Assembly: GCA_014382535.1 (NCBI GenBank)
Contig: JACNJN010000077.1
Span: forward strand, 516-64,515
Source: Candidatus Desulfolinea nitratireducens
GTDB lineage: Bacteria > Chloroflexota > Anaerolineae > Anaerolineales > Villigracilaceae
Length of the DNA stretch: 64,000 bases
Direction of reading: 5' to 3'
In this document: piece after piece, positions 9,578-35,461 of the stretch
Position numbering within the stretch: position 1 is the stretch's first letter
Layout: every line of letters starts with the position of its first letter
Notes under the pieces: model-generated
The model's input: the letters and a program-made list of their open reading frames with translations, nothing else
What the model was told of the DNA's origin: nothing
The model's database searches: none
Translations under genes and position numbers: made by a program

Positions 9578-9629
9578 TGGAGGGCGACATGAAAAAAACT
9601 TCTTATAATTTCAAAAATCAACGGTTGTC

Positions 9630-10613
9630 TTGATTCTGGTCGCCCTGTTGGTGGGTTGTAGCCTGCCAGCCTCGGTCAGTGAGGTTGGTGCTGCGAGTGT
9701 GCAGATCGGCCAACCGCAGGAGGGTGCGCAGTTAAAAGTTGGCGGAGTGGTCTCTGTGATATCAAGCTTCTCGGATCCGGGCGGTGCACAAGGGATGATC
9801 CTGGAAGTCAACGGGGTGGGCGTGCGCGAGGACAAATTTCACCTGCCGATGTTCGAGGGCAGGATGAACCAGCCTTGGCGACCGACCCAAAATGGCCCGG
9901 CAACCTTGTGCGTCTACCTGACTACTTCTAGCGGCCAGGTTGTCCGCTCGAATTGCGTCACAGTCATGATTGGCTCCGTTGTCAGGGCGACCTTTACACC
10001 CGGTTTCACAAACACGCCTTTCACAGAGCTAACTTTTACTCCAACGCCCACCTTCACACCGGGCGCGCCAACTGCAACCGCCACCCAGGACGCAAATTGC
10101 CGTCAGGGTCCCCGCGTGGATTATGCGGTGACGAGCAGCCTGGCCACGGGCAGGACAGCCCCCATTGTTGGCCGGAATACAGATCAATCCTGGTGGGTGA
10201 TCCGGATTCCCGGCAGTGCCGATTGCTGGATTTGGGATGGCACCGTCACGGTCGAAGGTGACATCAGCGCTGTGCCCGTGATCACGCCTCCGCCTGCCCC
10301 AATCGTAACCGTAACCCAGCCTGCTCCACTGACAGCCCCAAATCTGATCTCGCCAAGCGGAACATTAAACTGTGTTGATGTAACCGGTGGTGTAACTTTA
10401 AGCTGGTCAGTTGTCAGCCACGCAAACGGCATTGATCATTACGAGTGGGAATTAAACGGTTCTCCAAGCGATTCTGGCAATACGGGTAACGCACAGGCCT
10501 CAACATCTGGCTTAAGCTGCGCCGGAGCAATTTACCAATGGCGTGCCAGGGCAGTTGATGGAAAAGGAAATATTGGCCCTTGGTCAGGCTATATGCAATT
10601 TAATGTCCCGTAA
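9630..10613 (+). CDS. Putative lipoprotein with Ig-like N-domain, SH3b-like domain and FN3-like C-terminal module
   Basis: TTG start gives MILVALLVGCS (lipobox LVGC). NCRQGPRVDY...GRNTDQSWW is an SH3b-like signature. The C-terminal about 170 aa are paralogous to the end of the next gene. The start codon is uncertain. Confidence 0.65.
   Translation: MILVALLVGCSLPASVSEVGAASVQIGQPQEGAQLKVGGVVSVISSFSDPGGAQGMILEVNGVGVREDKFHLPMFEGRMNQPWRPTQNGPATLCVYLTTSSGQVVRSNCVTVMIGSVVRATFTPGFTNTPFTELTFTPTPTFTPGAPTATATQDANCRQGPRVDYAVTSSLATGRTAPIVGRNTDQSWWVIRIPGSADCWIWDGTVTVEGDISAVPVITPPPAPIVTVTQPAPLTAPNLISPSGTLNCVDVTGGVTLSWSVVSHANGIDHYEWELNGSPSDSGNTGNAQASTSGLSCAGAIYQWRARAVDGKGNIGPWSGYMQFNVP
10386..10579 (+). repeat. 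194-bp tract identical to 12418-12611 (gene-conversion tract inside the paralogous C-terminal modules)
   Basis: Offset 2032. Flanking mismatches at 10385/12417 and 10580/12612. The sense translation is identical across the whole tract and the overlapping antisense ORFs share their first 19 residues, which lie inside the tract. Confidence 0.85.
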
Positions 10614-10644
10614 GGACAATGTTCCATAAGAAATCGAGGTTCTC

Positions 10645-12645
10645 ATGCTAAAAGCACTCACAAAATTTCTTCTTCTATTTGTCCTGCTGAGTATCATCCC
10701 TGCTTGTAATTTCCAGCGAGAAAATGTCTGGTATGTGGCAATGGATGGCGATGACAACAATTCCTGTCGAGCGCGAGCGAATGCTTGCCGCACGATTCAG
10801 GCGGCCATCAACAAAGCCCACCCAGAGGGTACTGTCATTATCGGGCCTGGAAGCTATGAAGAGTCAATTGGCATCGCTAACCATAACCTGGAATTGCGTG
10901 GCTCAGGCGCTGACCAGACCATTCTGGATGGCGCGGGTCAGACAAATGTTGTCTATATTTTGGACAGTACGGTCATCATCACCGATATGACGATCACGAA
11001 TACCACTGATTATGGAAATGGGATCTTTAGCGAGGAAAGCACTTTGGCCCTCAATAATTCTCACTTGACTGACAATGGGATCGGTCTTTACCTCGACGGG
11101 GGGATTGCTACTGTTAGCAACAGCAGGTTTACGAGCAACGAGGGCTCTGCCGTTTTCATTGACCACGCGCAAGGACGAATCGTCAACAGCGTATTTGCAG
11201 GAAATGTTGGGAAAGGTATTCAAACATCCGACAGTCTGGCACACAGCGAGATTAATGTATCTAACAGCACGATAAGCGGCAACTTGCAGGAGGGGATATA
11301 CATCTACGGTGATGTTACGGCGACGATCTCCGACAGCACAATCGAGGGCAATAGTTTTGGTGGCATCTCAATAACAGCGCGCGTGCAGGGCGCCCTCGCC
11401 GGCGACCCGCCTGCAGCAGAACCTCCAGACTGGAGTACCTTTCCAACCACGGGTTGTCCGCAGGTGGTCATCATAAACAGCCTTTTCAGAAACAATCAAG
11501 CCTCCCCACCGCAGGATCACGCTGGGGGGGGGATTCACGCGGCTGGTTGCAGTACCACTGTCGTGACCAACACCACGATCTCGGGCAATCAAGCCGGCAG
11601 GGGTGGCGGCATATATGCTGACCTTGCTCCCAATGGCTCGATCACGATCGCAAACAGCACAATTACAGGCAATATTGCTACCCAAATCGGTGGCGGTATC
11701 TACAACTCAGAGAGCGGAACTGTGACGCTCACGGGGTCCATCGTGAGTTCAAATCGAGATGGAAACTGCAGTGGTCCTATTAACAGTGCTGGTTTCAACC
11801 TGGATAGTAGTAACACCTGTGGCTTCAGAAACGCAGGAGATCAGAGCAACACAAATCCAATTCTGGACGCCCATTTGAGAGATAATGGTGGGCCTACCTT
11901 GACCCATCAATTGTTCCCAGGCAGCCCTGCTATCGACACCATGCAAGGGTCGGACTGCCCGGTAAAGGACCAGCGTGGCGTAGCGCGCCCACAGGGGATA
12001 GCCTGTGACATCGGCGCATACGAGACCGAGGAATTGGCACTTGAGCCCCCTCCTCCAATTGGAGTAGTCCCAACCCTTCCCACCCTTACCCTGTCAGAGC
12101 CGCCTTCTGTCACATCCACGCAAGATTCCAATTGCCGCCTAGGACCAGGCCCAGACTATGAGGTCAGGAGCAGCCTGCTCACCGGTCAGACCGCCCCAAT
12201 CACCGGACGCAACACGGATTCCAGTTGGTGGATGATCAAGCTTGGCGGGAGCGAGTGCTGGATCTGGGGGCAAATCGTGACCGTGACCGGCGACTCCAGC
12301 CAGGTATCCGTAAAAACACCCCCGCCGCTTCCCATCGTAACCGTAACCGAGCCTGTTCCATTGACAGCGCCTTCACCGACCTCGCCGAGCGGCACGCTGA
12401 ATTGCGCCGATGTAACTGGTGGTGTAACTTTAAGCTGGTCAGTTGTCAGCCACGCAAACGGCATTGATCATTACGAGTGGGAATTAAACGGTTCTCCAAG
12501 CGATTCTGGCAATACGGGTAACGCACAGGCCTCAACATCTGGCTTAAGCTGCGCCGGAGCAATTTACCAATGGCGTGCCAGGGCAGTTGATGGAAAAGGA
12601 AATATTGGCCCCTGGTCAAGTTTTATGCAATTTAATGTGCCGTAG
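10645..12645 (+). CDS. Lipoprotein with right-handed parallel beta-helix repeats, choice-of-anchor-Q-like segment, SH3b-like and FN3-like modules
   Basis: Lipobox IIPAC. Repeated SGN/GGGIY beta-helix units. The motif NLDSSNTCGF...DNGGPTLTHQLFPGSPAIDT...CPVKDQRGVARPQGIACDIGAYE matches the choice-of-anchor Q pattern recalled from memory. RBS GAGG. Confidence 0.8.
   Translation: MLKALTKFLLLFVLLSIIPACNFQRENVWYVAMDGDDNNSCRARANACRTIQAAINKAHPEGTVIIGPGSYEESIGIANHNLELRGSGADQTILDGAGQTNVVYILDSTVIITDMTITNTTDYGNGIFSEESTLALNNSHLTDNGIGLYLDGGIATVSNSRFTSNEGSAVFIDHAQGRIVNSVFAGNVGKGIQTSDSLAHSEINVSNSTISGNLQEGIYIYGDVTATISDSTIEGNSFGGISITARVQGALAGDPPAAEPPDWSTFPTTGCPQVVIINSLFRNNQASPPQDHAGGGIHAAGCSTTVVTNTTISGNQAGRGGGIYADLAPNGSITIANSTITGNIATQIGGGIYNSESGTVTLTGSIVSSNRDGNCSGPINSAGFNLDSSNTCGFRNAGDQSNTNPILDAHLRDNGGPTLTHQLFPGSPAIDTMQGSDCPVKDQRGVARPQGIACDIGAYETEELALEPPPPIGVVPTLPTLTLSEPPSVTSTQDSNCRLGPGPDYEVRSSLLTGQTAPITGRNTDSSWWMIKLGGSECWIWGQIVTVTGDSSQVSVKTPPPLPIVTVTEPVPLTAPSPTSPSGTLNCADVTGGVTLSWSVVSHANGIDHYEWELNGSPSDSGNTGNAQASTSGLSCAGAIYQWRARAVDGKGNIGPWSSFMQFNVP
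12418..12611 (+). repeat. 194-bp tract identical to 10386-10579
   Basis: See the partner feature. Confidence 0.85.
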
Positions 12646-12728
12646 AATTATTGCCGGAGATAATAAGGGCTATCCCACTGAGGAGCACCAGAACGAGTTG
12701 GGATTAGATTGGTATTCTAATCATTACA

Positions 12729-12785
12729 AATGACAAAGAAGGCTGCCCTCTAAAGGACAGCCTTCTTTGTCATTTCTGTTTTTTA
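12729..12785. terminator. Bidirectional intrinsic terminator between convergent genes
   Basis: Stem GACAAAGAAGGCTG(CC) / (GGA)CAGCCTTCTTTGTC, with a T-run on the + strand and an A-rich run (ACAAA) on the left. Confidence 0.75.
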
Positions 12786-12797
12786 GCGTTTTATATA

Positions 12798-14075
12798 TTA
12801 GTCAGCTGCGACAGGTTCCATTTTAAGTTTGTCAGATGCTGCTTTCTTTGCTTGTGGGGAATTTAGCGAAAAGGTCAGGCCTGCGGCGAGAATTAACATA
12901 GTGGCAGCCAGGAGGTAAGCCTTATCAAAAGAGCCTGTGGTATCTTTGATCGTGCTAGCAACTTGGGAAACCATGAAGCCACCGAGACCCCAGGCTGTAT
13001 AGGCGATACCATAATTGGTTGCAAGGTTCTTGGGTCCATAAAAAACTTTCATCAATGCAGGGAATACGGCCAGGTTAGCACCATAATTGGCACCGATCAA
13101 AGCAACGAAGACGAGCAAAACAGGGGGATTAGCGAGAACACTATTTGCACCCATAAAGAATAAAGCACTGATCAGTACTGCCTGTGCAAGGAATGCAATG
13201 ATAAGCACATTCGTGCGACCAATTTTGTCGGAGAGCATCCCGTATAAAACACGGCCGCCACCATTGCCGATCGCTAGGGCAGAAACAGCGATAGCTGTCA
13301 GCGCAGGGAGGCCGATCTGATCCTTGACGATAGATGCAAGATTTCCGATGATCATCAGCCCAGCACCACTGCCAAAGGCAAAAGCGACCCAGATGACGTA
13401 GAATTGCCAGGTGCGGGTGGTTTCACGCACGGTGAAGTCAATCAAGGGGATTTTGGCAGTTGTTTCTACTGTGTCCTCTTCTTCAAGGACAAAATCTTTG
13501 GGCGGGAATTTGATGAACTGAGCAAAGCTAACAACAACAACGAGCATACCGATGCCGAGATAGAGCATGGTTGTTTGCAAACCAAGCGATTCCATCAATG
13601 CGCGAGCCAGGGGGGCCACCCAGGCACTGCCCATCCCGAAACCAGCAACGACGATTCCTGAAATTAATCCTGTTTTAGAGGTGGGGAACCATTTGAGTGC
13701 AGCAGGACCAGCTGAGCCATAGACAAAGCCGATTCCGGAGCCCAAGAGGACGCCAAAAGCGAGGGTGAAGATCCAAGGGGAACTAGAGAAACTGGAAATG
13801 ATCACGCCGAGACCAGCCATCACGCCACCAGCGCTAACAATTGCGCGTGGGCCAAAACGGTGCAACAAGCGGGCGCCGACGAAGGTCATGACTGAAAAGA
13901 CTACGCAGGCTACAGCATAGGGTAGAGATTGTTGTGTTTCTGTCCAACCCCATTCGATGGGAATGTTGGCTTTAAAGATGCTCCATGCGTAAAGAACGCC
14001 TAAAGCCAGCAGGGCGCCAGTCCCTGCGAAGGTGACCATCCAACCCTTATTTTTCACAGTGTGTGTGTTTTGCAT
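12798..14075 (-). CDS. MFS transporter, oxalate/formate antiporter (OFA)-like family
   Basis: 425 aa, about 12 TM segments. N-terminal GALLALGVLYAWSIFK is typical of the OFA family. RBS GAGGAG upstream. Confidence 0.85.
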   Translation of the reverse strand: MQNTHTVKNKGWMVTFAGTGALLALGVLYAWSIFKANIPIEWGWTETQQSLPYAVACVVFSVMTFVGARLLHRFGPRAIVSAGGVMAGLGVIISSFSSSPWIFTLAFGVLLGSGIGFVYGSAGPAALKWFPTSKTGLISGIVVAGFGMGSAWVAPLARALMESLGLQTTMLYLGIGMLVVVVSFAQFIKFPPKDFVLEEEDTVETTAKIPLIDFTVRETTRTWQFYVIWVAFAFGSGAGLMIIGNLASIVKDQIGLPALTAIAVSALAIGNGGGRVLYGMLSDKIGRTNVLIIAFLAQAVLISALFFMGANSVLANPPVLLVFVALIGANYGANLAVFPALMKVFYGPKNLATNYGIAYTAWGLGGFMVSQVASTIKDTTGSFDKAYLLAATMLILAAGLTFSLNSPQAKKAASDKLKMEPVAAD

Positions 14076-14102: not shown

Positions 14103-14175
14103 ATTTTTCTGACAACTTTGAAGGCGAAATTATACGAAGTTGTCAGACAACTGTCAAGGAGTTGTCTGACAACTT
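14103..14175 (-). promoter_or_regulatory. Consensus sigma70 promoter (TTGACA-17-TATAAT) overlapped by three copies of the palindrome AGTTGTC-N-GACAACT
   Basis: On the minus strand the -35 TTGACA is at 14152-14157 and the -10 TATAAT at 14129-14134, with a 17-nt spacer. Palindromes are centred at 14167, 14145 (both perfect 7-1-7) and 14110 (13/15). Confidence 0.7.
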
Positions 14176-14281
14176 GAACAGACAAGCGGCTGGAGTGAGA
14201 AGGGTTTCCAGACCGAATAGAAATTGAAGGATTTGGGGTAGAATTGAAAAACCCCTCGATTCTTTCAATGGAATCGAGGGG

Positions 14282-16334
14282 TTTTGTGTATAATCATATA
14301 AATATTTCATAAGTAAAGTTGATTTATTCATATTTGCGTGTCTTGGGAAAATGGTAACAAGGAATAAACAATGAGGAAATCCAAATCTACAAAGATCCTT
14401 GCACAATCCCGGGGTAAGCGGTTTCTGCTATTGATTACTCTGTTCCTGACGGGCTTCACCTCACTGGCTTATGAATTGATTTGGACCAGAAAACTGTCCC
14501 TGGTTTTCGGCGCGAATGCCCTTGCGGTCAGCACTGTGCTCAGTATATTTTTGGCTGGTTTAGCATGGGGTAGTTTTTATGGTGGAAAATTAATTGAAAA
14601 ATCCAAAAACCCTTATAAATTCCTCGGTATTGTTGAAATCCTTATAGGGGCAGGATGTTTGCTGACCCTGATCCTGATTGATGGTATCAAATTCGCATAT
14701 CTAAGTCTCTTTACATACTTTGGTGGAAACTTAATTCTTGTAAACCTGGTCCATTTTCTAATTAGTGCAGTGATTCTGATTGTCCCCACATTTTTAATTG
14801 GTGTCGTATTTCCTGTAGCTGTGAAATTATATTATCAGGAATCCAATGATATCGGGGATAGCGTCAGCTGGGTCTATATGGCCGATACTGTCGGGGGAGC
14901 AATAGGGTTATTAGCAACTGGACTGGTATTGATTTGGAAGATGGGTTTTTGGAATACTTCGCTGTGGTCCTCAATAGTGAACATCACCCTGGGTATCTCC
15001 ATATTAGCTTTGTTGAGGGCCAATTTATTGGCGCCACAACAACAATCTCCTCAGAAGAGCAGGAAAAAGAAAAAAGGAAACCGGAAGGAAAATCGTCAGG
15101 AAATAAACGAGCCCCGGAAAACATCAGGCAAGCTTGTCCTCGCACTTTTCTTCTTCTCAGGATTCGCAGCCTTAATCTTAGAAAATGTTTGGATTCGTTA
15201 TTTTGAAATGATCTACGGTAACAATATGATCTCATTTTCTCTTGTTGTTGCTTCTTTTCTGATTGGTCTCGGTCTCGGAAGTTTTGCAGCAAAATATCTC
15301 ACTCGTTCAGTAAAGAATAAAATCTTTTTATTCTCTATGATTGAAATGGGTATCGGGCTTTCAAGTTTATTACTTATGCTGATGTTCCCTTATATCGAGA
15401 ATATATACCTTTCCATCTTTTTCGATGTGGACAATTACAATGAGTTTCTCATTCTGTTGGGCCTTTTAGTATTTTTTATGTTGCTTATCCCCACACTATT
15501 AATGGGCATGACACTTCCGGTAATTAGTGAAATATACACAAATGGGAAAACGATAGGTTCGGATATTGGCAGGTTGTACTCATTTAATTCTTTCGGTTCC
15601 ATATTAGGTTCCTTTTTGTCAGGATTTGTGTTCTTCTATTTATTTGGCCTCCAGAATACCGCAATTATGGCAGCCCTGATTTATATTCTAATAGCCTTTA
15701 TTTTTATTTTTTTCTATGAAAAATCCAGATTGAAGACCTTTCTGACTGTTTTTGTTAATTTATTATTCCTTATTTTAGTGTTGTACGAGTTTTATTATCA
15801 GCCCGAATACCTTTATATTGGTGCCTATTACCATGGGACCCAATTTGACAATCCCTCCGATTTTTATCGTACAAAAGAAGAGTACGAAGTTTTGTTTGAA
15901 AAACAAAGCCCGTATTCATTTGTTAGCGTTGTTTCAGCAAGAGGAAATACTCTACTCAAAATAAACGGCAGAACAGAGGGGTCAACATATAATATTGTTC
16001 AAAATATGCTGGCAAACCTGCCTCTCTTATTCCATCCATCCCCGGATGAAGTTGCCAGTATTGGTCATGGTGGTGGTTATACCTTAAACACGATCACAAA
16101 ATATTCTGCCGTAAAAACTATTGACAATATTGAGATCGACCAGGTAATTATTGAAGCGGATCAATATATTCAAGACAATGGGAGACCATTATCTGACCCA
16201 AGAGTTAATCTGATCGTCGCTGATGCCAGAAATTATCTTTATACCAATCCCAAAAAATACGATGTGATCATTTCCGAGCCATCGCATATTTGGGCATCAT
16301 CTCCTTTGTTTACCAAAGAATTTTTCGAGATCAT
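14282..16334 (+). repeat. Left copy of a 2,053-bp perfect direct repeat (offset 2706)
   Basis: Covers the promoter region plus the first 1,964 nt of the CDS. Sense and antisense ORF translations are identical in both copies. The first mismatches are at 14281/16987 and 16335/19041. Confidence 0.85.
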
Positions 16335-16770
16335 TGATAATAGCCTGGAAGAGGGAGGAATTTATACCATTTGGGTGCCTGTATATGAGATGAATAATTA
16401 TGATTACGGGGTCATTATTGAAACGATAAAATCTGTTTTTCCTTATTTTATTGAATTTGATTATAGCGGTGATGCAATCATACTTGCCTCACGTCACAAG
16501 ATCGATATTGCCAAGGATCTGAATATTTCACACCTTGATGATATTGAAGTTATGAAGGAGATGGAAATCGTAAGGCAATTAGACGGTGAGAATCATGTGG
16601 ACTTGCCCGCATTTTTAATTGACCATCATTATCCAAATGATATTGTTGATGATTATATCCAGGAACATGTTGGTGAGGTTACCCAAATCAATACCGATGA
16701 TTTTCCTATCCTGGAATATACCACTCGCAGGAATGCATATAAGAAATTTAGAAGCGAAGATACTCCATAA
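14371..16770 (+). CDS. Polytopic membrane domain fused to a spermidine-synthase-like (class I SAM-fold) domain, paralog 1
   Basis: 799 aa. About 13 predicted TM helices, a K/R-rich loop (KSRKKKKGNRKENR), then a C-terminal domain with IGHGGGYT, NIEID, ADARNY and DVIISEPSHIW. Confidence 0.85.
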   Translation: MRKSKSTKILAQSRGKRFLLLITLFLTGFTSLAYELIWTRKLSLVFGANALAVSTVLSIFLAGLAWGSFYGGKLIEKSKNPYKFLGIVEILIGAGCLLTLILIDGIKFAYLSLFTYFGGNLILVNLVHFLISAVILIVPTFLIGVVFPVAVKLYYQESNDIGDSVSWVYMADTVGGAIGLLATGLVLIWKMGFWNTSLWSSIVNITLGISILALLRANLLAPQQQSPQKSRKKKKGNRKENRQEINEPRKTSGKLVLALFFFSGFAALILENVWIRYFEMIYGNNMISFSLVVASFLIGLGLGSFAAKYLTRSVKNKIFLFSMIEMGIGLSSLLLMLMFPYIENIYLSIFFDVDNYNEFLILLGLLVFFMLLIPTLLMGMTLPVISEIYTNGKTIGSDIGRLYSFNSFGSILGSFLSGFVFFYLFGLQNTAIMAALIYILIAFIFIFFYEKSRLKTFLTVFVNLLFLILVLYEFYYQPEYLYIGAYYHGTQFDNPSDFYRTKEEYEVLFEKQSPYSFVSVVSARGNTLLKINGRTEGSTYNIVQNMLANLPLLFHPSPDEVASIGHGGGYTLNTITKYSAVKTIDNIEIDQVIIEADQYIQDNGRPLSDPRVNLIVADARNYLYTNPKKYDVIISEPSHIWASSPLFTKEFFEIIDNSLEEGGIYTIWVPVYEMNNYDYGVIIETIKSVFPYFIEFDYSGDAIILASRHKIDIAKDLNISHLDDIEVMKEMEIVRQLDGENHVDLPAFLIDHHYPNDIVDDYIQEHVGEVTQINTDDFPILEYTTRRNAYKKFRSEDTP

Positions 16771-16987
16771 TAAGCTTTGAAATTTCAATCTGAATATTTG
16801 GATGACGAAAAACAATCGCATGATATATCATGCGACTGTTTTTTTCTCTTCCGCCTCCGGATCACGAATACGCATTCGATATTTTATGTGGTCCGCGGCT
16901 GGGATGAAAAATGATTCCCGACTGAGGTGAAATTGAAGGAATTGGGGTTGAATAAAATCCCTCGTCTCATTTATAAGAAACGAGGGA

Positions 16988-19040
16988 TTTTGTGTATAAT
17001 CATATAAATATTTCATAAGTAAAGTTGATTTATTCATATTTGCGTGTCTTGGGAAAATGGTAACAAGGAATAAACAATGAGGAAATCCAAATCTACAAAG
17101 ATCCTTGCACAATCCCGGGGTAAGCGGTTTCTGCTATTGATTACTCTGTTCCTGACGGGCTTCACCTCACTGGCTTATGAATTGATTTGGACCAGAAAAC
17201 TGTCCCTGGTTTTCGGCGCGAATGCCCTTGCGGTCAGCACTGTGCTCAGTATATTTTTGGCTGGTTTAGCATGGGGTAGTTTTTATGGTGGAAAATTAAT
17301 TGAAAAATCCAAAAACCCTTATAAATTCCTCGGTATTGTTGAAATCCTTATAGGGGCAGGATGTTTGCTGACCCTGATCCTGATTGATGGTATCAAATTC
17401 GCATATCTAAGTCTCTTTACATACTTTGGTGGAAACTTAATTCTTGTAAACCTGGTCCATTTTCTAATTAGTGCAGTGATTCTGATTGTCCCCACATTTT
17501 TAATTGGTGTCGTATTTCCTGTAGCTGTGAAATTATATTATCAGGAATCCAATGATATCGGGGATAGCGTCAGCTGGGTCTATATGGCCGATACTGTCGG
17601 GGGAGCAATAGGGTTATTAGCAACTGGACTGGTATTGATTTGGAAGATGGGTTTTTGGAATACTTCGCTGTGGTCCTCAATAGTGAACATCACCCTGGGT
17701 ATCTCCATATTAGCTTTGTTGAGGGCCAATTTATTGGCGCCACAACAACAATCTCCTCAGAAGAGCAGGAAAAAGAAAAAAGGAAACCGGAAGGAAAATC
17801 GTCAGGAAATAAACGAGCCCCGGAAAACATCAGGCAAGCTTGTCCTCGCACTTTTCTTCTTCTCAGGATTCGCAGCCTTAATCTTAGAAAATGTTTGGAT
17901 TCGTTATTTTGAAATGATCTACGGTAACAATATGATCTCATTTTCTCTTGTTGTTGCTTCTTTTCTGATTGGTCTCGGTCTCGGAAGTTTTGCAGCAAAA
18001 TATCTCACTCGTTCAGTAAAGAATAAAATCTTTTTATTCTCTATGATTGAAATGGGTATCGGGCTTTCAAGTTTATTACTTATGCTGATGTTCCCTTATA
18101 TCGAGAATATATACCTTTCCATCTTTTTCGATGTGGACAATTACAATGAGTTTCTCATTCTGTTGGGCCTTTTAGTATTTTTTATGTTGCTTATCCCCAC
18201 ACTATTAATGGGCATGACACTTCCGGTAATTAGTGAAATATACACAAATGGGAAAACGATAGGTTCGGATATTGGCAGGTTGTACTCATTTAATTCTTTC
18301 GGTTCCATATTAGGTTCCTTTTTGTCAGGATTTGTGTTCTTCTATTTATTTGGCCTCCAGAATACCGCAATTATGGCAGCCCTGATTTATATTCTAATAG
18401 CCTTTATTTTTATTTTTTTCTATGAAAAATCCAGATTGAAGACCTTTCTGACTGTTTTTGTTAATTTATTATTCCTTATTTTAGTGTTGTACGAGTTTTA
18501 TTATCAGCCCGAATACCTTTATATTGGTGCCTATTACCATGGGACCCAATTTGACAATCCCTCCGATTTTTATCGTACAAAAGAAGAGTACGAAGTTTTG
18601 TTTGAAAAACAAAGCCCGTATTCATTTGTTAGCGTTGTTTCAGCAAGAGGAAATACTCTACTCAAAATAAACGGCAGAACAGAGGGGTCAACATATAATA
18701 TTGTTCAAAATATGCTGGCAAACCTGCCTCTCTTATTCCATCCATCCCCGGATGAAGTTGCCAGTATTGGTCATGGTGGTGGTTATACCTTAAACACGAT
18801 CACAAAATATTCTGCCGTAAAAACTATTGACAATATTGAGATCGACCAGGTAATTATTGAAGCGGATCAATATATTCAAGACAATGGGAGACCATTATCT
18901 GACCCAAGAGTTAATCTGATCGTCGCTGATGCCAGAAATTATCTTTATACCAATCCCAAAAAATACGATGTGATCATTTCCGAGCCATCGCATATTTGGG
19001 CATCATCTCCTTTGTTTACCAAAGAATTTTTCGAGATCAT
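16988..19040 (+). repeat. Right copy of the 2,053-bp perfect direct repeat
   Basis: See 14282-16334. Confidence 0.85.
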
Positions 19041-19470
19041 AGATAATAGTTTGGCAGAGGGAGGAATTTATACAATTTGGCTGCCTGCTTATGAAATGAA
19101 GGGATACGATTTTGGCGTCATTATCGAAACAATAAAATCTGTTTTTCCAAATATAAAAGCATTTGATTATAGGGGTGTAATGATCATACTTGCCTCGCAC
19201 CATCAGATCGACATAGCTGAGGATCTTAATCTAACCCACCTTGAAGATAGTGAGGTAATAAAAGAGTTGGGTATAGTCAAAGAACTGGATGGTGAGGAAA
19301 ATATGGATCTCCCCGCATTTATAAAAAAACACCATTTTTCCGAGATCGAAGAATTTGTCCAGGATCAGATTGGAGAAGTAAATCAGCTCAACACCGATGA
19401 TCTTCCGATTCTGGAGTACTCAACCCTAAAGAACCTATATCGCAAATTCAACATTGAAGGGACTCCTTAG
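17077..19470 (+). CDS. Membrane/spermidine-synthase-like fusion protein, paralog 2
   Basis: 797 aa. Identical to paralog 1 through ...FFEIIDNSL, then diverges. Confidence 0.85.
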   Translation: MRKSKSTKILAQSRGKRFLLLITLFLTGFTSLAYELIWTRKLSLVFGANALAVSTVLSIFLAGLAWGSFYGGKLIEKSKNPYKFLGIVEILIGAGCLLTLILIDGIKFAYLSLFTYFGGNLILVNLVHFLISAVILIVPTFLIGVVFPVAVKLYYQESNDIGDSVSWVYMADTVGGAIGLLATGLVLIWKMGFWNTSLWSSIVNITLGISILALLRANLLAPQQQSPQKSRKKKKGNRKENRQEINEPRKTSGKLVLALFFFSGFAALILENVWIRYFEMIYGNNMISFSLVVASFLIGLGLGSFAAKYLTRSVKNKIFLFSMIEMGIGLSSLLLMLMFPYIENIYLSIFFDVDNYNEFLILLGLLVFFMLLIPTLLMGMTLPVISEIYTNGKTIGSDIGRLYSFNSFGSILGSFLSGFVFFYLFGLQNTAIMAALIYILIAFIFIFFYEKSRLKTFLTVFVNLLFLILVLYEFYYQPEYLYIGAYYHGTQFDNPSDFYRTKEEYEVLFEKQSPYSFVSVVSARGNTLLKINGRTEGSTYNIVQNMLANLPLLFHPSPDEVASIGHGGGYTLNTITKYSAVKTIDNIEIDQVIIEADQYIQDNGRPLSDPRVNLIVADARNYLYTNPKKYDVIISEPSHIWASSPLFTKEFFEIIDNSLAEGGIYTIWLPAYEMKGYDFGVIIETIKSVFPNIKAFDYRGVMIILASHHQIDIAEDLNLTHLEDSEVIKELGIVKELDGEENMDLPAFIKKHHFSEIEEFVQDQIGEVNQLNTDDLPILEYSTLKNLYRKFNIEGTP

Positions 19471-19496
19471 AAATTGCGATTCAAATTCCATAAAAA

Positions 19497-21860
19497 ATGG
19501 CCATGAGGAATTTTATGAAAAATTCGGATATAGTAAAAGCGCCTTTTCAGTCTCGCGGAAAAAGGTTCTTGCTATTATTTACTCTCTTTTTTACAGGCTT
19601 AACATCTCTGGCTTATGAATTAATTTGGACCAGAAAGCTTACCCTGGTATTCGGTGCAAATGCATTGGCTGTAAGTACCGTGCTCAGTATATTTTTAGCC
19701 GGTTTGGCGCTTGGTAGTTTATATGGAGGAAAACTAATCGAAAGATCCAAAACCCCGTATAAATTTCTCGGTTCTCTTGAGATTCTTATTGGAGCGAGCT
19801 GTTTACTCACATTATTCCTGATTGATAGCATCAAATATGCTTACCTACCCCTTTTCACTCTATTTGGAGGGAACCTATTTTTAGTAAACGTTATTCAATT
19901 TATTATCAGCGCTTTTATTCTAATTATTCCGACATTTCTTATTGGCGTTGCATTTCCTTCAGTTGTAAAGTTGTATTACCATGAAGATAAAGATATAGGA
20001 GGCAGTGTCAGTTGGTGCTATGCAGCTGATACATTGGGTGGTGCTGTTGGGCTATTGATCACTGGGTTAGTGTTAGTTTGGGTAATTGGTTTTTTAAATA
20101 CATCCCTTATCGCATCGGTGGTAAATATAACCTTAGGAATTTTTATTCTTACCTTTATTAGAGTCGAAAAAAATAATGATTTAAGAATACCTGAAAATGA
20201 GAATGTAAAGAAACAGAAAACAGACACACTAATCCTGGTTCTTTTCTTCTTTTCGGGTTTTGCAGCTTTAATCTTAGAGAATGTTTGGATCCGTTTTTTT
20301 GACATGATCTATGGGAACAGTATTCTTTCATTTTCTCTGGTCGTTGCCTCCTTTCTTTTTGGTTTGGGTATTGGAAGTTTTGCCGCAAAATTTATTGCCC
20401 GTTCAATTAAAAACAAAATATTACTTTTTTCTGTCATTGAATTAAGCATTGGGTTGACCAGCTTGATCCTTTTACTTGTTTTCCCGAATATTGAAAGGAT
20501 CTTTCTGGAGCTCTTTTTTGGCGAAGACAGCTATTCCCGGTTTGTTTTTCTCCTCGGAGCTGTTGCAATAGCTGTGTTGTTAATCCCTACTACCCTAATG
20601 GGAATGACTCTCCCGATACTAAGCACAATATACACCAAAGGAGAAACGATTGGATCTGATATGGGCAGGTTATATTCTCTTAATTCATTTGGCTCTATTT
20701 TGGGCTCATTCCTTTCAGGATTTGTGTTATTCTACACAATTGGCCTCCACAATACTGCACTTTTGGGGTCTTTAATTTATATCGCAATAGCCTTTGTTTT
20801 TATATATTTTTATGGCAGGCTCCAATTAAAGATTTTCATGGCAGTATTCATAAATTTTCTTTTTTTAGTATTAATTTTATTCAATTATTTTTATCGGCCT
20901 GATTTTCTGTACAACGGTGTTTATTATCATGGAACACGCTATAGGGACGCAGATAGATATTTCGAAGTTAAAGGAGATGATGAAGTTGTTTTTCAAAAAC
21001 AAAGTCCCTATTCTTTTGTCAGTGTAATCAAATCAGCGGGACGCACATATCTAAAAATTAATGGCAGGACAGAAGCCGCTACGGATGCGACGGTACAAAA
21101 TATGTTGAGTGATTTGCCTCTCATCTTTCATGCATCGCCTGATGAGGTGGCGATTATAGGCCACGGCGGTGGTTATACTTTAGAAGCGGTGACAAAGTTT
21201 TCTGCAGTTGCATCAATCGATGATATTGAAATTGATCAAGTGATTATCGAAGCAAATCAGTATATTCACGATAATGGAGATGCCTTATCTGACCCCAGAG
21301 TAAATTTAGTCATTGCTGATGCCAGAAATTATCTCTTTACCGGAACAAAAAAATATGATGTCATCATTTCTGAGCCTTCACATATTTGGGCATCTTCACC
21401 ATTGTTTACCAAGGATTTTTTTGAAATAACCAAAAAAAGCCTAAAAGAAGATGGTATTTATGCAACCTGGCTTCCTGTGTACGAAATGAGTGATTACGAT
21501 TACGGTGTCATTATCAAAACGATCACTTCAGTCTATCCACATCTACTTATTTTTAAATATAGTGGGGCCGAAGTATTTTTGGCCTCAAATCACAAGATAG
21601 ACCCCTCGTCTGATATATATCTTCCACACCTTGATGATAATGCAGTATCGGATGAGATGGACTATGTCAGGAGACTGGAATATGAAGAGGACCTGGATGT
21701 CCAGGAATTCATACTCGAGCATTACATTTCCGGTGACGAAGGATATATCACAAATCGCGTAGGGGATGACATCCAAATTAATACCGATGATTTGCCTATC
21801 CTGGAATATACGACACGCAGAAATGCATATAAAAAATTTAGAAGTGAAGAAGTTCCTTGA
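19497..21860 (+). CDS. Membrane/spermidine-synthase-like fusion protein, paralog 3 (diverged)
   Basis: 787 aa with the same architecture. It lacks the K/R-rich loop. It starts only 26 nt after paralog 2. Confidence 0.85.
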   Translation: MAMRNFMKNSDIVKAPFQSRGKRFLLLFTLFFTGLTSLAYELIWTRKLTLVFGANALAVSTVLSIFLAGLALGSLYGGKLIERSKTPYKFLGSLEILIGASCLLTLFLIDSIKYAYLPLFTLFGGNLFLVNVIQFIISAFILIIPTFLIGVAFPSVVKLYYHEDKDIGGSVSWCYAADTLGGAVGLLITGLVLVWVIGFLNTSLIASVVNITLGIFILTFIRVEKNNDLRIPENENVKKQKTDTLILVLFFFSGFAALILENVWIRFFDMIYGNSILSFSLVVASFLFGLGIGSFAAKFIARSIKNKILLFSVIELSIGLTSLILLLVFPNIERIFLELFFGEDSYSRFVFLLGAVAIAVLLIPTTLMGMTLPILSTIYTKGETIGSDMGRLYSLNSFGSILGSFLSGFVLFYTIGLHNTALLGSLIYIAIAFVFIYFYGRLQLKIFMAVFINFLFLVLILFNYFYRPDFLYNGVYYHGTRYRDADRYFEVKGDDEVVFQKQSPYSFVSVIKSAGRTYLKINGRTEAATDATVQNMLSDLPLIFHASPDEVAIIGHGGGYTLEAVTKFSAVASIDDIEIDQVIIEANQYIHDNGDALSDPRVNLVIADARNYLFTGTKKYDVIISEPSHIWASSPLFTKDFFEITKKSLKEDGIYATWLPVYEMSDYDYGVIIKTITSVYPHLLIFKYSGAEVFLASNHKIDPSSDIYLPHLDDNAVSDEMDYVRRLEYEEDLDVQEFILEHYISGDEGYITNRVGDDIQINTDDLPILEYTTRRNAYKKFRSEEVP

Positions 21861-21912
21861 AAGACTTTGGAATGTCAATACTATTTCAGACACGTTTAAA
21901 GATCATTATTGA

Positions 21913-25915: not shown

Positions 25916-27085
25916 ATGCCTCCACGACAAAGTAGATTTTCAGAAAAAGAAAACTGGGCAGACGAAAGATGGATGGGAAGGGGCCATTTTCTTCATCACC
26001 GCCTGCGCCATAGTAGCAAAAGACGGTTTTTATGGATTCGCTTTATCGGCTTTTTTCTATTTTTAGCGCTCCCATTATTGATGGCGGGCGCCTTTTTGGG
26101 GGCTTTATTCCGTTCCGGGGATTTTACATTTGACGGCTCGCATATGCCCTTGCCTCTGTTCTTATCTCATAATCCGGGCATTTTTGTTCCCCTTTTCTTT
26201 TGCGGGATCCCGATTTTGATCATTGCAACGCTTGGCTATTTTGGTTCGCGTGCTTTTCGAAAAATGGGAACCCCCCTTGCAGACGTGATGACCGCCGCGG
26301 ATGCAGTTGCGGATGGCGATCTCACTGTTCGTGTCCCCGAGCGAGGCCCGAGCGAGATTCGCAGATTATCCGAATCCTTCAATCGGATGGTGGATGAACT
26401 GGCACACGCTGATAAACAACGCCGGAATATGACCGCCGATGTTGCCCATGAATTGCGCACCCCTCTCCATATTTTGCGTGGAAACCTGGAAGGGCTGCTG
26501 GATGGTGTTTACGAGGCGACTCCGGAGCAGATCGAATCGATGCTTGACGAAACCCGACTTTTATCCAGGTTGGTGGATGATCTTCAAACGATCTCACTCG
26601 CGGAGGGTGGGCAGTTGTACTTGAATCTGGATGAAGTAAATATCCCCGAGTTATTGGAGGATGTGCGGACCAGTTTTCTCGGTCAGGCGGATGAGGCGAC
26701 TGTTGAAATGATCGTGAATGTGGAGGACGAAGGACTTTCTATCACCGCTGATGCTGGACGTCTTGACCAGGTTTTAGGCAATCTGGTCGGGAACGCGTTG
26801 CGGTACTCACCTGCGGACAGTTGCATCCGTTTGGAAGCGGAATCCAGCCCGATGGGCGTCCGTCTCCGAATCCGCGATGAGGGAGAGGGAATCCCGTCTG
26901 AAGACATCCCCTATATTTTTGATCGTTTCTACCGTGTCGACAAATCCCGCCTTCGAACGGAGGGTGGTGGCAGCGGACTTGGGTTAGCGATAGCAAGGCA
27001 GCTGGTTCAATTGCACCATGGAACGATCAAGGTAGAGAGTGAGTTGGGGAAAGGGACGACATTTATTATTGATCTCCCCAAATAA
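25916..27085 (+). CDS. Sensor histidine kinase (2 TM, very short external loop, HAMP, HisKA, HATPase)
   Basis: H-box AHELRTPL, N-box NLVGNALRY, G-boxes IRDEGEGI and GGSGLGLAIA. It starts 2 nt after the response-regulator stop. Confidence 0.9.
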   Translation: MPPRQSRFSEKENWADERWMGRGHFLHHRLRHSSKRRFLWIRFIGFFLFLALPLLMAGAFLGALFRSGDFTFDGSHMPLPLFLSHNPGIFVPLFFCGIPILIIATLGYFGSRAFRKMGTPLADVMTAADAVADGDLTVRVPERGPSEIRRLSESFNRMVDELAHADKQRRNMTADVAHELRTPLHILRGNLEGLLDGVYEATPEQIESMLDETRLLSRLVDDLQTISLAEGGQLYLNLDEVNIPELLEDVRTSFLGQADEATVEMIVNVEDEGLSITADAGRLDQVLGNLVGNALRYSPADSCIRLEAESSPMGVRLRIRDEGEGIPSEDIPYIFDRFYRVDKSRLRTEGGGSGLGLAIARQLVQLHHGTIKVESELGKGTTFIIDLPK

Positions 27086-27086
27086 G

Positions 27087-27122
27087 AAAAAGGCTGGACT
27101 TCATCATGAAATCCAGCCTTTT
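27087..27122. terminator. Bidirectional terminator between convergent genes
   Basis: AAAAGGCTGGACTTC / GAAATCCAGCCTTTT (1 mismatch), flanked by A- and T-runs. Confidence 0.75.
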
Positions 27123-27126
27123 GGTA

Positions 27127-27588
27127 TTACTCCCCAGTCACAGTTGGATGTCCAGCTGCGTCCCAACCTTTGATACCGCCGGCAATACTGGTGACACTTC
27201 TATGCCCGGCTGCTAGCAAAATATCACGCCCAACCTGGCTGCGATTTCCAGACCGGCAGATAATTATCACTTCCTGATCGAAGGGTACCTCGCTGACGCG
27301 GGCTTCGAGCTGATCCAATGTGATCAAGGTCGCGCCGGGGACATGGTACTCAGCCCATTCTTCGGGAGTGCGTACATCAAGCAGGAAAGCGCCCTCTTCA
27401 TATTTCTCAAAAGCCAGCCCGGTATTGATCTCGGCAGGGAGCGCGTTGATCGTTGCCGGGGTTGTTGGTGATTGGGTAGCTATAAAAATTGCGATAATTG
27501 CGATTGTGACAATGGCAAGAACAATCCAAAGTTGTTGCTGATTATTCTTGGCTTTCTTGCGCAGAGCTTTCTTTTGTTTTTTTGTCAT
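27127..27588 (-). CDS. Membrane-anchored rhodanese-domain sulfurtransferase
   Basis: 153 aa. Lys-rich N-terminus plus one TM. Active-site loop IICRSGNRS. Confidence 0.85.
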   Translation of the reverse strand: MTKKQKKALRKKAKNNQQQLWIVLAIVTIAIIAIFIATQSPTTPATINALPAEINTGLAFEKYEEGAFLLDVRTPEEWAEYHVPGATLITLDQLEARVSEVPFDQEVIIICRSGNRSQVGRDILLAAGHRSVTSIAGGIKGWDAAGHPTVTGE

Positions 27589-27838
27589 AGGTTATCTCCT
27601 TTATCTATTGGATGATTAAAGAAATGAAAAAGTTGCATCAAAATTGAAGGATTTACACTTGATTATTTCTTCAGCATCACAAATTGTATTTGAGATCTAG
27701 AAAATAAAAAGATGCCCCGAACAATGCTAAAATATGCCATTGAAAAATTCAGCAAAGAAGAGCGACAGAGATATCTGAGCGGCACTGCATAATCCCAAAA
27801 TTAATTAAGATTTCCCAATAGGCCTAGGGCTTAGTCTC

Positions 27839-29092
27839 ATGAAAAACAAAAATCTGATCCGGATTTTTACTTTTAATCAAAGTTTTCACTGGTTTATGAC
27901 CGGGTTGATGATTCCCATCCTGACCTTGTTGTTATTGAAAAAAGGATTGGATTTGTTTCAGATCGGGATTGCCCTGGGTCTTTACTCAGGCATTGTGATC
28001 TTATTCGAATTACCGACGGGAGGGCTGGCAGATTCTATCGGGAGAAAACGTGTTTACCTGATTTCCTTGGTTGCTTCTATTACTGCAATGACATTTCTGC
28101 TTTTTGCGCGGAGCTTTATCACCCTTTCCACAGGGTTTGTTTTTATGGGGATCGCACGCGCTCTATCATCCGGAACCATGGATGCCTGGTTTGTGGATGA
28201 GTTCCGCAAAAATGATATCAATGGAAATTTACAGGCAGCCTTTGCCAAAGTTGGTATATTTATTCCACTTGGATTGGGAGCGGGGGCGATTTTGGGGGGT
28301 GTCTTGCCAATGTCCCTGGGAAAGATGACAGCTCGCTTACCAAATTTCGATATTTATTCCGCCAATATCCTGGTTGTTCTTTTTTTGGGAATACTTCAAA
28401 TTTACCTTACTTCCAAGTTAATTCATGACCCCAGATCTGAAGCCAGTCATTCAGGTATATTAAATGGACTCAAAGAATTTCCGCGCGTGATTTCAGATTC
28501 CATTCAATATGGTTTTAAAAATCGAATTGTTTTGTTGCTGGCTCTTTCAACTGGTGCATGGGGGTTGGGCATTTCCGGCGTTGAATTATTATGGCAGCCA
28601 CAGACCAAAATTATTCTTGGATCCGATTCGCAAACGTGGATTTTCGGCTTGATGAGCGCTGGATATTTTGTGGCCAGTGCCCTGGGCAGTTTTATCGCCT
28701 CCCCGCTCTGTAAATTTTTCAATAACAACTATCAAGGTGTATTGGCAGGAGCCCGTTTTTTGATGGGAGGCACTTTATTTATCCTCGCTTTGCAAGCGGA
28801 GATCATCGGCTTTATCGGATTTTATTGGGGACTCTTTATCTTCAATGGCATTATGAATTCCCCGCATGCGGCAATATTTAACGATAATATCCCCGAAGAA
28901 CAGCGGTCAACACTGCTTTCTTTTGAATCTGTAGTCATGCAAATGGGGGGAGTATTGGGGTCAATAGGATTGGGCTATTTATCGCAAAGTTTCTCTATTG
29001 CAATTGCGTGGTTTGTAGGCGCTGGAGTTTTGGCGTTTTCGAGTTTATTTTATATCTTTCTTCCGAAACAAACTGCGAAAATACCGGTTTGA
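27839..29092 (+). CDS. MFS transporter
   Basis: 417 aa, about 12 TM. Loop motif GGLADSIGRKRV between TM2 and TM3. Confidence 0.85.
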   Translation: MKNKNLIRIFTFNQSFHWFMTGLMIPILTLLLLKKGLDLFQIGIALGLYSGIVILFELPTGGLADSIGRKRVYLISLVASITAMTFLLFARSFITLSTGFVFMGIARALSSGTMDAWFVDEFRKNDINGNLQAAFAKVGIFIPLGLGAGAILGGVLPMSLGKMTARLPNFDIYSANILVVLFLGILQIYLTSKLIHDPRSEASHSGILNGLKEFPRVISDSIQYGFKNRIVLLLALSTGAWGLGISGVELLWQPQTKIILGSDSQTWIFGLMSAGYFVASALGSFIASPLCKFFNNNYQGVLAGARFLMGGTLFILALQAEIIGFIGFYWGLFIFNGIMNSPHAAIFNDNIPEEQRSTLLSFESVVMQMGGVLGSIGLGYLSQSFSIAIAWFVGAGVLAFSSLFYIFLPKQTAKIPV

Positions 29093-35444: not shown

Positions 35445-35461
35445 ATCCTGCAAAATAATTT

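Follow-up and report, generated by a model that had tools for sequence, protein, structure and literature searches.

An old, AT-rich array of three fused MFS and spermidine-synthase-fold proteins that lack the GGGDG acid in Candidatus Desulfolinea nitratireducens

The locus

We analysed a 64-kb stretch of DNA from Candidatus Desulfolinea nitratireducens (contig JACNJN010000077.1, positions 516 to 64,515; hereafter the window, with positions counted from its first letter). Between an L-lactate-type transporter gene of the major facilitator superfamily (MFS; NF049980, 385 bits) and recJ (TIGR00644, 497 bits) it carries an AT-rich block of three tandem genes, A, B and C, each predicted to encode an MFS-type membrane domain fused to a domain with the fold of spermidine synthases (PABS fold). 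A preliminary description of the window had picked out three co-oriented genes of about 790 aa that share one architecture, and the open reading frame (ORF) calls agree with it in position and strand:

14371..16770, + strand: gene A, 799 aa (ORF call)
17077..19470, + strand: gene B, 797 aa (ORF call)
19497..21860, + strand: gene C, 787 aa (ORF call)

In public gene calls on identical contigs gene C begins 18 bp later, at 19515, which gives 781 aa. Three ENA metagenome assemblies, independent of one another, show the same A-B-C order on 73-75 kb contigs that each encode protein A verbatim, so that an accident of assembly is very unlikely. The polynucleotide phosphorylase of the window is 100% identical to that of an Anaerolineales metagenome-assembled genome (MAG) and has its next relatives in Chloroflexota; MurE, NuoL, NuoM, NuoN and a RecJ of bacterial type likewise confirm that the host is a bacterium.

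The block had also been described as more AT-rich than its flanks, judged by eye, and as holding no other gene, and both points stand up to computation. Each 1-kb interval between 14 and 22 kb has a GC content of 0.355-0.41, against ~0.50-0.54 in the adjacent intervals. Third codon positions show the drop too: their GC content (GC3) is 0.435-0.60 in 17 other genes of the window (at least 0.485 in 16 of the 17) but 0.33-0.40 in A, B and C. Since this comparison set includes the polytopic nuoL, nuoM and nuoN and the neighbouring MFS gene, none of them AT-rich, and since GC3 is low as well, the idea that AT-richness merely reflects the amino-acid content of membrane proteins could be discarded: the compositional departure is real and not a by-product of hydrophobic residues. 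The block gives no Rfam family match, no PADLOC match and no integrase-sized ORF, there is no tRNA in the whole window, and the intergenic space of the block holds only what appear, from the sequence, to be promoters and terminators. A defence island was considered as well and rejected, there being no PADLOC match, no integrase, no tRNA and no flanking repeats.

All three genes are members of a known but uncharacterised family, the NCBIfam family NF037959 ('fused MFS/spermidine synthase'), with scores of 115 (A), 117.3 (B) and 112.1 bits (C) against a cutoff of 40. The earlier statement that such fusions are widely annotated and functionally uncharacterised is borne out by this match and by the searchable literature, in which we found nothing on the fused MFS/spermidine-synthase family; papers that mention Mycobacterium tuberculosis Rv2601 only repeat its annotation.

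Architecture

The proteins had been read as about 13 transmembrane (TM) helices followed by a C-terminal domain of the spermidine synthase type, and hydropathy, AlphaFold2 models, Pfam and NCBIfam profiles and Foldseek searches all agree with that division. For protein A the parts are as follows:

14371..15795, + strand: MFS-fold membrane domain, aa 1-475 (repeats, Foldseek, Lys/Arg bias), with 6-helix repeats at aa 1-220 and aa 250-450 (mutual alignment)
15031-15132, + strand: disordered Lys/Arg-rich linker, aa 221-254, predicted cytoplasmic (model, Lys/Arg count)
15721-15795, + strand: helix 13, aa 451-475 (hydropathy, models)
15796..16767, + strand: PABS-fold domain, aa 476-799 (phmmer, profile search, Foldseek)

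At the N-terminus Pfam MFS_1 scores 49 (A), 47.3 (B) and 28.5 bits (C), with a cutoff of 33.4, and the two halves of the membrane domain are homologous to each other (30% identity, E 3e-21). Hydropathy and two AlphaFold2 models give 13 TM helices. The full-length model of A, built on a 69-sequence alignment, has a pLDDT of 89.4 and a pTM of 0.89. In it six helices, a disordered Lys/Arg-rich linker (residues 222-248) and seven further helices precede the PABS-fold part, which is made up of a beta-hairpin subdomain, a Rossmann core and, at the C-terminus, a helical extension. Residues 1-478, modelled on their own, reach a pLDDT of 84.4. When the whole protein is compared by Foldseek with the PDB, the top 50 matches are all spermidine or thermospermine synthases (target-normalised TM-score 0.63-0.73). 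When residues 1-478 are compared, the top 50 are all MFS transporters, among them OxlT, SfMCT, G6PT, VAChT, NorA and MCT1, with target-normalised TM-scores of 0.51-0.74 over 439-526 aligned columns. In the alignment consensus, motif-A-like G-x-x-x-(D/E)-(R/K) loops follow helices 2 and 8. The residue pairs E35/R40 and E271/R276 are conserved. From the Foldseek matches and the homologous six-helix halves we conclude that A, B and C are, as modelled, a complete 12-helix MFS fold, a 13th helix and then a PABS-fold domain.

The C-terminal domain withstood the profile searches proposed as a check on it. Pfam Spermine_synth (PF01564) matches at about residues 540-690 of all three proteins (E ~1e-24, 83-88 bits; cutoff 22.9), and phmmer and profile searches of the PDB retrieve spermidine synthases at E 1e-17 to 4e-38. 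The models that define functional equivalence to speE are another matter: A, B and C reach 85.7-93.9 bits where TIGR00417 asks for 249.6 and NF002010 for 260, and every speE or polyamine-aminopropyltransferase equivalog cutoff is missed by a factor of 2-3 or more. One such model, NF002956 ('polyamine aminopropyltransferase', PRK03612), matches partially, over residues 235-689 at 186-203 bits, with a cutoff of 472.

The cofactor and acceptor pocket

We aligned A, B and C residue by residue to solved spermidine synthases and counted the pocket columns in three family sets, namely 69 aligned homologs, 86 domains from GTDB genomes (>20 phyla) and 148 representatives of 50%-identity clusters. The motifs that matter lie at these positions in A:

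16063..16083, + strand: cofactor motif G-H-G-G-G-Y-T, aa 565-571, aligned with GGGDGGx of true spermidine synthases
16222..16230, + strand: D618-A-R620, where D618 is the equivalent of the adenine-binding Asp and R620 a near-invariant, family-specific Arg
16273..16287, + strand: S-E-P-S-H, aa 635-639, in place of the D-S-S-D-P catalytic and putrescine-binding loop
16690..16716, + strand: conserved C-terminal motif N-T-D-D-x-P-x-L-E, with D776 invariant across the family

One difference lies in the glycine loop, which reads IGHGGGYT here and IGGGDGG in the solved spermidine synthases. The Asp of GGGDG is thereby a Gly in A, B and C, and the residue three positions further on (+3) is a Thr (Thr571 in A). 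This holds for the family as a whole: in none of the 69, 86 and 148 sequences (~300) is the Asp equivalent a D or an E, the residues being G, S or T with single others in the 69 homologs, S/G/T/M/A/F/C/L in the 86 GTDB domains and S/T/A/G/C/N in the 148 representatives, and the +3 position is T or S in 68/69, 81/84 and 146/148. In characterised enzymes the Asp binds the aminopropyl amine of decarboxylated S-adenosylmethionine (dcSAM) and repels the carboxylate of S-adenosylmethionine (SAM) itself (PMC3725402).

The acceptor side has changed too. The equivalents of the putrescine-binding residues Tyr79 and Asp176 of the human enzyme are Val and His here, and mostly Thr and mostly Asn or His, respectively, in the family. 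The position of the catalytic base (human D173) holds Glu in A, B and C and mostly E, then Q or D, in the family, and Gln544, the equivalent of Q79/Q80, is kept, Gln being the family majority as well. The family sets show little or no variation at E588, the Glu that binds the ribose, and at D618, the Asp that binds the adenine, from which we expect that a SAM-like cofactor is still bound. More generally, the cofactor-binding residues, R620, T648, W668 and D776 are near-invariant across hundreds of diverged sequences, with an acidic or polar residue at the base position.

Of the 'spermidine synthase type' assigned in the preliminary description, the fold therefore stands and the function probably does not: with the dcSAM-selecting acid and the putrescine-binding residues absent family-wide and the speE equivalogs missed, the label fits the fold only. 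We hold with considerable confidence, on these sequence grounds, that A, B and C are not canonical aminopropyltransferases, and the PABS-fold domain looks like an offshoot of the aminopropyltransferase lineage in which both cofactor and acceptor have changed.

Membrane topology

In MFS transporters the 12-helix core begins and ends in the cytoplasm, and its central loop lies there too. The positive charges fit this rule: protein A has 7 Lys or Arg (K/R) in its N-terminal 18 residues and 12 in the central linker, and across the 69 homologs the loops on the side of the N-terminus and linker average 21.0 K+R against 5.2 on the other side, the 'in' count exceeding the 'out' count in 69/69 sequences. 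An odd number of helices places the N-terminus and the PABS-fold domain on opposite sides of the membrane. Taking the 13 helices together with the K/R bias, we predict that the PABS-fold domain is extracytoplasmic throughout the family.

Distribution and gene neighbourhoods

The family is very large. A family profile search of 1.84 billion sequence clusters found 61,000 cluster representatives at E<=1e-3, of which 18,733 reach E<=1e-30; the best 150 all match over their full length, and 129/148 of those retrieved exceed 860 aa, mainly owing to TPR repeats at the C-terminus. When GTDB species genomes were scanned with a profile of the 21-sequence near clade, matches came from >20 bacterial phyla and several archaeal lineages, nearly all of them MAGs; among the cultured hosts are Ectothiorhodospira magna, Halorhodospira abdelmalekii and Spirosoma lacussanchae (L078, L086 and L085). 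The block had been proposed as the best candidate for undescribed biology in the window, an 'envelope-associated transferase of unknown substrate'. That wording is reasonable and the family is indeed uncharacterised, but any novelty belongs to a family of >10^4 clusters and not to this locus.

The survey of related genomes for copy number and neighbours, which had been suggested at the outset, found a two-gene array in a sister species (described below) and no conserved neighbour beyond one planctomycete context. Neighbour genes differ from genome to genome, and no conserved partner emerged in Abyssobacteria, Woesearchaeota, Methanotrichaceae, Pirellulales, Planctomycetota, Ectothiorhodospira, Halorhodospira, Spirosoma or two archaeal metagenome contigs. 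Neither a SAM decarboxylase nor any other polyamine gene adjoins any locus examined. The sole recurring context is confined to planctomycetes: behind one or more family genes come a phosphatidylserine-decarboxylase-like gene, the gene of a small TPR protein and another family member. It was seen in two genomes, at L015 7396-16923 and L023 10016-16976, where this other member has 1030-1063 aa and TPR repeats. The decarboxylase-like neighbour hints at an amine-lipid substrate. Tandem family copies occur in Pirellulales as well. In the Methanotrichaceae homolog (L019 9965-13521) a 342-aa ORF, which is read from the other strand and may be an insertion sequence, interrupts the gene and leaves it in two pieces.

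In a neighbour-joining tree the genes of the window and the sister species group with Ca. Abyssobacteria (52% identity), next with a clade of Woesearchaeota, Methanotrichaceae and Methanosarcinales (39-43%) and then with planctomycetes; the TPR-bearing majority of bacterial members stands outside this group. Beyond the bacteria the closest homologs (40-43% identity; L007, L008/L014) lie on archaeal contigs that also carry Alba, ribosomal protein S17e and an archaeal-type PEP carboxylase. This pattern suggests that family genes have been exchanged between bacteria and archaea.

Remodelling and age of the array

The preliminary description held that the array is still being remodelled, and we find clear traces of this. 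The relevant features are:

14248..14294, + strand: hairpin and putative promoter of A (A-run, 16-bp stem, T-run; -26.7 kcal/mol)
14282..16334, + strand: apparent gene-conversion tract, copy 1 (2,053 bp, 100% identical to copy 2)
16366..16680, + strand: variable C-terminal module of A, aa 666-770 (~60% identical between A and B)
16654..16789, + strand: apparent A/C exchange trace, the A 3' end plus 19 nt past the stop (78% identical to C 21744-21879)
16808..16843, + strand: intrinsic-terminator-like hairpin with T-run, starting 38 bp after the A stop
16952..17000, + strand: paralogous hairpin and putative promoter of B and C (-21.4 kcal/mol; same extended -10 element, 16991-17000)
16988..19040, + strand: apparent gene-conversion tract, copy 2 (2,053 bp, 100% identical to copy 1)

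The tract runs from the T-run of the hairpin over the extended -10 element (TGTGTATAAT at 14285-14294, directly 3' of the A hairpin) and the 5' untranslated region to codon 654. Proteins A and B are accordingly identical over residues 1-654 and first differ at residue 655. On both sides of the tract the identity falls off sharply: upstream, 14186-14244 and 16895-16953 are only ~78% identical, and downstream A and B are 60-82% identical. In codons 666-770 synonymous sites between A and B are near saturation (synonymous divergence, dS, 1.38; ratio of nonsynonymous to synonymous change, omega, 0.17). The C-terminal ~130 aa of B are the ortholog of the single A-type tail of the sister species (66.7% identity, dS 0.62), and the tail of A represents a different, older lineage. 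An identical core between old, diverged flanks points to recent gene conversion between old duplicates and not to a new duplication. From the sequence comparison, then, A and B are old duplicates in which a recent conversion of 2,053 bp made the promoter and codons 1-654 identical. The 3' ends of A and C, at 78%, are more alike than the ~68% identity of A and C elsewhere, and for codons 771-799 dS between them is 0.55, against saturation elsewhere; judged by this local likeness, the two ends keep the trace of an older exchange between A and C.

As for expression, the terminator-like hairpin after A and the 26-bp spacing between B and C point to two transcription units, one of A and one of B and C together. 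The hairpins at 14248-14285 and 16952-16993 both have z-scores of about -6 and stems that differ by compensatory changes. The hairpin structure itself thus seems to be conserved before the A and B promoters, where the two elements could be insulating bidirectional terminators.

How old is the array? The sister species, known from JGI metagenomes 3300017527 and 3300017613, has at the same site the order ThiS-AFOR-[A-type]-[C-type]-AF_0692-recJ. Its two-gene array is equally AT-rich, and flanking proteins of the two species are 79-97% identical. Gene C, 64% identical to A and B, is orthologous to the second copy of the sister species. Between the species dS is 1.04 for A and 0.70 for C, within the 0.58-1.05 of flanking genes, and omega for A and C is 0.12-0.16, like that of recJ and a histidine kinase. 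A recent insertion of the block, which we had considered, is ruled out by the presence of the block at the same site in the sister species and by the flank-like dS; the same two facts indicate that the block is old and has been inherited vertically since before the species split. On this comparison the A-type and C-type copies predate that split.

The pressure for dosage or diversification that had been read into the three copies finds no support. Omega is 0.05-0.38 over all segments (none above 0.4), which gives no evidence of diversifying selection, and positive selection on the variable C-terminal module was ruled out separately (omega 0.15-0.38). Since the A and C types are older than the species and A and B are themselves old duplicates, there has been no fresh amplification either. 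In sum, the sequences describe an ancient array that owes its shape to gene conversion and not to continuing amplification or to positive selection. Only the window species and its sister species show a deficit in gene GC relative to the flanks (0.13-0.15). In 27 other genomes gene GC lies within ~0.07 of flank GC, and in none is it as low as 0.37, so that the attempt to identify a donor lineage from GC failed, gene GC following flank GC in all 27. By composition and divergence, the block is foreign-looking but old and under ordinary purifying selection, with a donor that is unsampled. It may serve as an example both of an acquisition, apparently between domains, whose foreign composition outlasted a speciation event and of concerted evolution, by a 2-kb gene conversion, that stops short of the C-terminal module.

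The two species differ around the array as well. Compared with the sister species (L004 8154-8299), the window has four extra genes between AFOR and the block, at 6989-14075, for an 862-aa pentapeptide-repeat protein, a Big_7 protein, a 'choice-of-anchor Q' beta-helix protein and the MFS lactate transporter. Near recJ the sister species has two genes that this genome lacks, one of the AF_0692 family and one for a PEMT/ICMT-like methyltransferase.

Discussion

What might a membrane protein with such a pocket do? A comparison with known systems is instructive here. With the bulk of NF037959 the window proteins share MFS and PF01564 domains, the motif YExxWxR in both repeats, GxGxGxT, DxR, SEPSH/N and NTDDxPxLE; they differ in their length (~790 aa, without the C-terminal TPR extension of most representatives) and in belonging to a small clade with Ca. 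Abyssobacteria and archaea. With SpeE (PF01564, TIGR00417; structures 1INL, 2O06 and 3O4F) they have in common the fold, including the N-terminal beta-hairpin subdomain, the glycine loop, the ribose Glu and the adenine Asp; in contrast to SpeE they are without the GGGDG acid, have replaced the Tyr79 and Asp176 equivalents and exchanged the catalytic Asp for Glu, are fused to 13 TM helices and score 3-fold below the equivalog cutoffs. The membrane-bound 'SpeE' proteins of the PRK03612/NF002956 type, such as M. tuberculosis Rv2601, come closer in architecture, as window residues 240-690, which comprise the second six-helix repeat, helix 13 and the catalytic domain, align to the 522-position model; the window proteins carry in addition an N-terminal six-helix repeat that completes the MFS fold in one chain. 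PRK03612 proteins presumably keep GGGDG. In MprF and LplT-Aas a transporter or flippase is fused to a lipid-modifying enzyme, and there too a polytopic translocating domain is covalently coupled to an enzyme that modifies envelope molecules; their domains are unrelated to those described here, and their enzyme domain is cytoplasmic.

Two further comparisons bear directly on the pocket. The putrescine N-methyltransferase (PMT) of Solanaceae has, like the window family, a non-acidic residue at the Asp position and a Thr at +3, and experiments have shown that these two changes switch the enzyme from aminopropyl transfer with dcSAM to methyl transfer with SAM (PMC3725402). In Datura spermidine synthase SPDS1, D103I abolished aminopropyl transfer and conferred SAM-dependent methyltransferase activity, V106T, at the +3 position, improved the use of SAM, and D101I abolished or crippled aminopropyl transfer in the Thermotoga enzyme (PMC3725402). 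PMT is a soluble plant enzyme and the likeness is one of convergence, not of shared ancestry; moreover PMT carries Q79T and keeps the putrescine site, whereas the window family keeps the Gln and has lost that site. The second case is NHMT, Aspergillus nidulans AN4663, a 7-TM methyltransferase of the N-terminal histidine of lytic polysaccharide monooxygenases, established by knockout and mutagenesis (PMC10349129). AN4663 had been auto-annotated as a spermidine synthase, and its missing GxG(D/E)G acid was the argument for a methyltransferase (PMC10349129 and preprint). It resembles the window proteins in its odd number of TM helices and in the spermidine-synthase-like domain behind them, which has a helical extension at the C-terminus and no GxG(D/E)G acid. 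It acts on secreted proteins in the endoplasmic reticulum, a site topologically equivalent to the cell exterior, where the window domain is predicted to lie. The membrane parts, compared by description only, differ: 7 helices that the authors call unique to filamentous fungi, against a 12+1 MFS fold. A relationship to the window proteins can be detected in the C-terminal domain of METTL13 (5WCJ) as well (E 7e-8); PMT, NHMT and METTL13-C are N-methyltransferases as a functional class and not as a clade.

Putting motifs, topology and the analogies with PMT and NHMT together, we lean, by a little more than an even chance, towards the following composite reading: A, B and C would be membrane-integral SAM-dependent transferases, most likely N-methyltransferases (or transferases of another alkyl group), acting on the outer face of the membrane and served by their own MFS domain. 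E636 would be the probable general base for an amine (or imidazole) acceptor, and the catalytic domain, lying outside, would modify an exported protein or other envelope component, as NHMT does. Since SAM is cytoplasmic and the domain is predicted outside, delivery of the cofactor or of the acceptor through the MFS domain would be the most economical solution, with that domain bringing SAM (or the acceptor) to the PABS-fold active site. The cell would then make three enzymes with a common membrane and cofactor core and different C-terminal modules. The two halves of the topological part deserve a more guarded wording: that the catalytic domain is both outward-facing and fed through the MFS domain is possible, yet we would put it at somewhere between one chance in four and somewhat below even. 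More speculative still, and in our judgement rather unlikely as it stands, is a fully self-supplying extracytoplasmic methylation, in which the MFS domain carries SAM into an outward-facing site that N-methylates amines of secreted proteins or envelope polymers, with the paralogs targeting different surface substrates. Such a system would have no precedent among SAM-dependent modifications, since it would work outside the cytoplasm of a prokaryote, and fungal NHMT would have in it a prokaryotic counterpart.

Several observations weigh against the composite reading. The topology is a prediction, and the proposed function is deduced from sequence motifs and by analogy with two enzymes, PMT of plants and NHMT of fungi. 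Judged by E-values in the PDB profile search, aminopropyltransferases (4e-38) are far closer kin of the domain than is METTL13, an N-terminal methyltransferase (7e-8). The Gln equivalent to Q79/Q80 is kept in the family, whereas PMT changed it, and the base position holds a conservative Glu. No conserved gene neighbour pointed to a substrate at the loci examined. Finally, SAM is not known to occur outside prokaryotic cells, so that an outward-facing SAM enzyme would need a supply route.

Several alternatives can be set beside this reading. If one starts from the relatives of the domain, one alternative is that these are genuine membrane-bound aminopropyltransferases, for spermidine, thermospermine or long-chain polyamines, with synthesis coupled to export through the MFS domain or with aminopropylation of an envelope amine. 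The best sequence and structure matches are, after all, spermidine and thermospermine synthases without exception, the ribose- and adenine-binding residues are kept, the base position is acidic, and NF002956 matches in part. We nevertheless consider this improbable, as the dcSAM-binding acid is absent from all ~300 family members examined and its mutation abolishes or cripples aminopropyl transfer in the plant and Thermotoga enzymes (PMC3725402); the replaced Tyr79 and Asp176 equivalents, equivalog cutoffs missed by a factor of 2-3 or more and the want of an adjoining SAM decarboxylase or polyamine gene at any examined locus tell in the same direction. If one starts instead from the supply of SAM, which is available only in the cytoplasm, the catalytic domain might be cytoplasmic, for example with helix 13 not spanning the membrane, and would then be an inward-facing SAM methyltransferase tethered to an MFS protein that handles lipids or metabolites. 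A phospholipid head-group amine could, for instance, be N-methylated and then flipped by the MFS domain in the style of MprF or LplT-Aas, which show that fusions of flippases or transporters with lipid-modifying enzymes are an established design. Two planctomycete loci have an apparent operon with a phosphatidylserine-decarboxylase-like gene, and phosphatidylserine decarboxylase makes an amine lipid. Opposed to this stand the 13 helices found by hydropathy and in both AlphaFold2 models, the K/R bias (21 vs 5.2, in 69/69 sequences) and the cytoplasmic termini of the MFS core, given which an added helix puts the domain outside, and the decarboxylase neighbour is confined to planctomycetes; we judge the cytoplasmic arrangement unlikely.

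The same predicted location can be turned into an argument against catalysis altogether. The PABS-fold domain lies, on our prediction, where SAM is not expected, its canonical catalytic residues are changed, and the MFS domain seems intact, its motif-A-like loops being in place behind helices 2 and 8, as would befit a non-enzymatic extracytoplasmic module that binds a ligand (polyamines, methylthioadenosine or nucleosides) and gates or regulates a working transporter. We judge this as unlikely as a cytoplasmic domain, since the near-invariance of the cofactor residues, the base position, R620, T648, W668 and D776 is the pattern of an active site and not of decay. A doubt of a different kind concerns the array itself, which, especially in its 2-kb A/B repeat, might be an artefact of metagenome assembly that merged strain variants: short reads do not easily resolve an exact repeat of 2,053 bp, and allelic B variants do exist in other samples (P0002, 97%/99%). 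This is very improbable, however, given the same structure in the three independent 73-75 kb contigs, a junction between A and B (3' end of A, terminator, B promoter) whose sequence is unique and possible only in tandem, diverged flanks on both sides of the identical tract, and a tandem pair at the same site in the sister species.

If the preference for an outward-facing SAM-dependent N-methyltransferase is correct, the predicted arrangement, a complete MFS transporter with a SAM-type transferase domain on its outer side, would point to a kind of envelope or secreted-protein modification that has not been described in prokaryotes, and it could indicate by what route NHMT, likewise an outward-facing methyltransferase, obtains its cofactor. 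In practical terms the name 'spermidine synthase' would be wrong for >10^4 clusters from most bacterial phyla and several archaeal lineages, a misnaming that would distort reconstructions of polyamine pathways from genomes and MAGs.

Other features of the window

Upstream of the array, a perfect sigma-70 promoter (TTGACA-17-TATAAT) lies on the - strand at 14157-14129, inside a 16-nt perfect palindrome, AAGTTGTCAGACAACT / AGTTGTCTGACAACTT, at 14137-14175 (feature span 14105-14175), with a third half-site just upstream. The palindrome is probably an operator of the divergent L-lactate-type MFS transporter gene at 12798-14075. Milder low-GC patches (0.43-0.44) occur elsewhere in the window, at 27000-29100, 35000-36000 and 53000-54000, the first of which holds another MFS gene (27839-29092; GC 0.425, GC3 0.435). 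Two neighbouring tyrosine phenol-lyase/tryptophanase paralogs lie on the - strand at 30244-31659 and 32394-34025. One of them passes the tyrosine phenol-lyase equivalog (760 bits), and the other, with an N-terminal extension of ~85 aa, fits the general tryptophanase subfamily best. At 59497-62193 an 898-aa fusion joins a DHH/NrnA-like phosphoesterase N-terminal part to an A-adding/CCA tRNA nucleotidyltransferase; it scores 462 bits with NF041569, a model whose cutoff is 1440.

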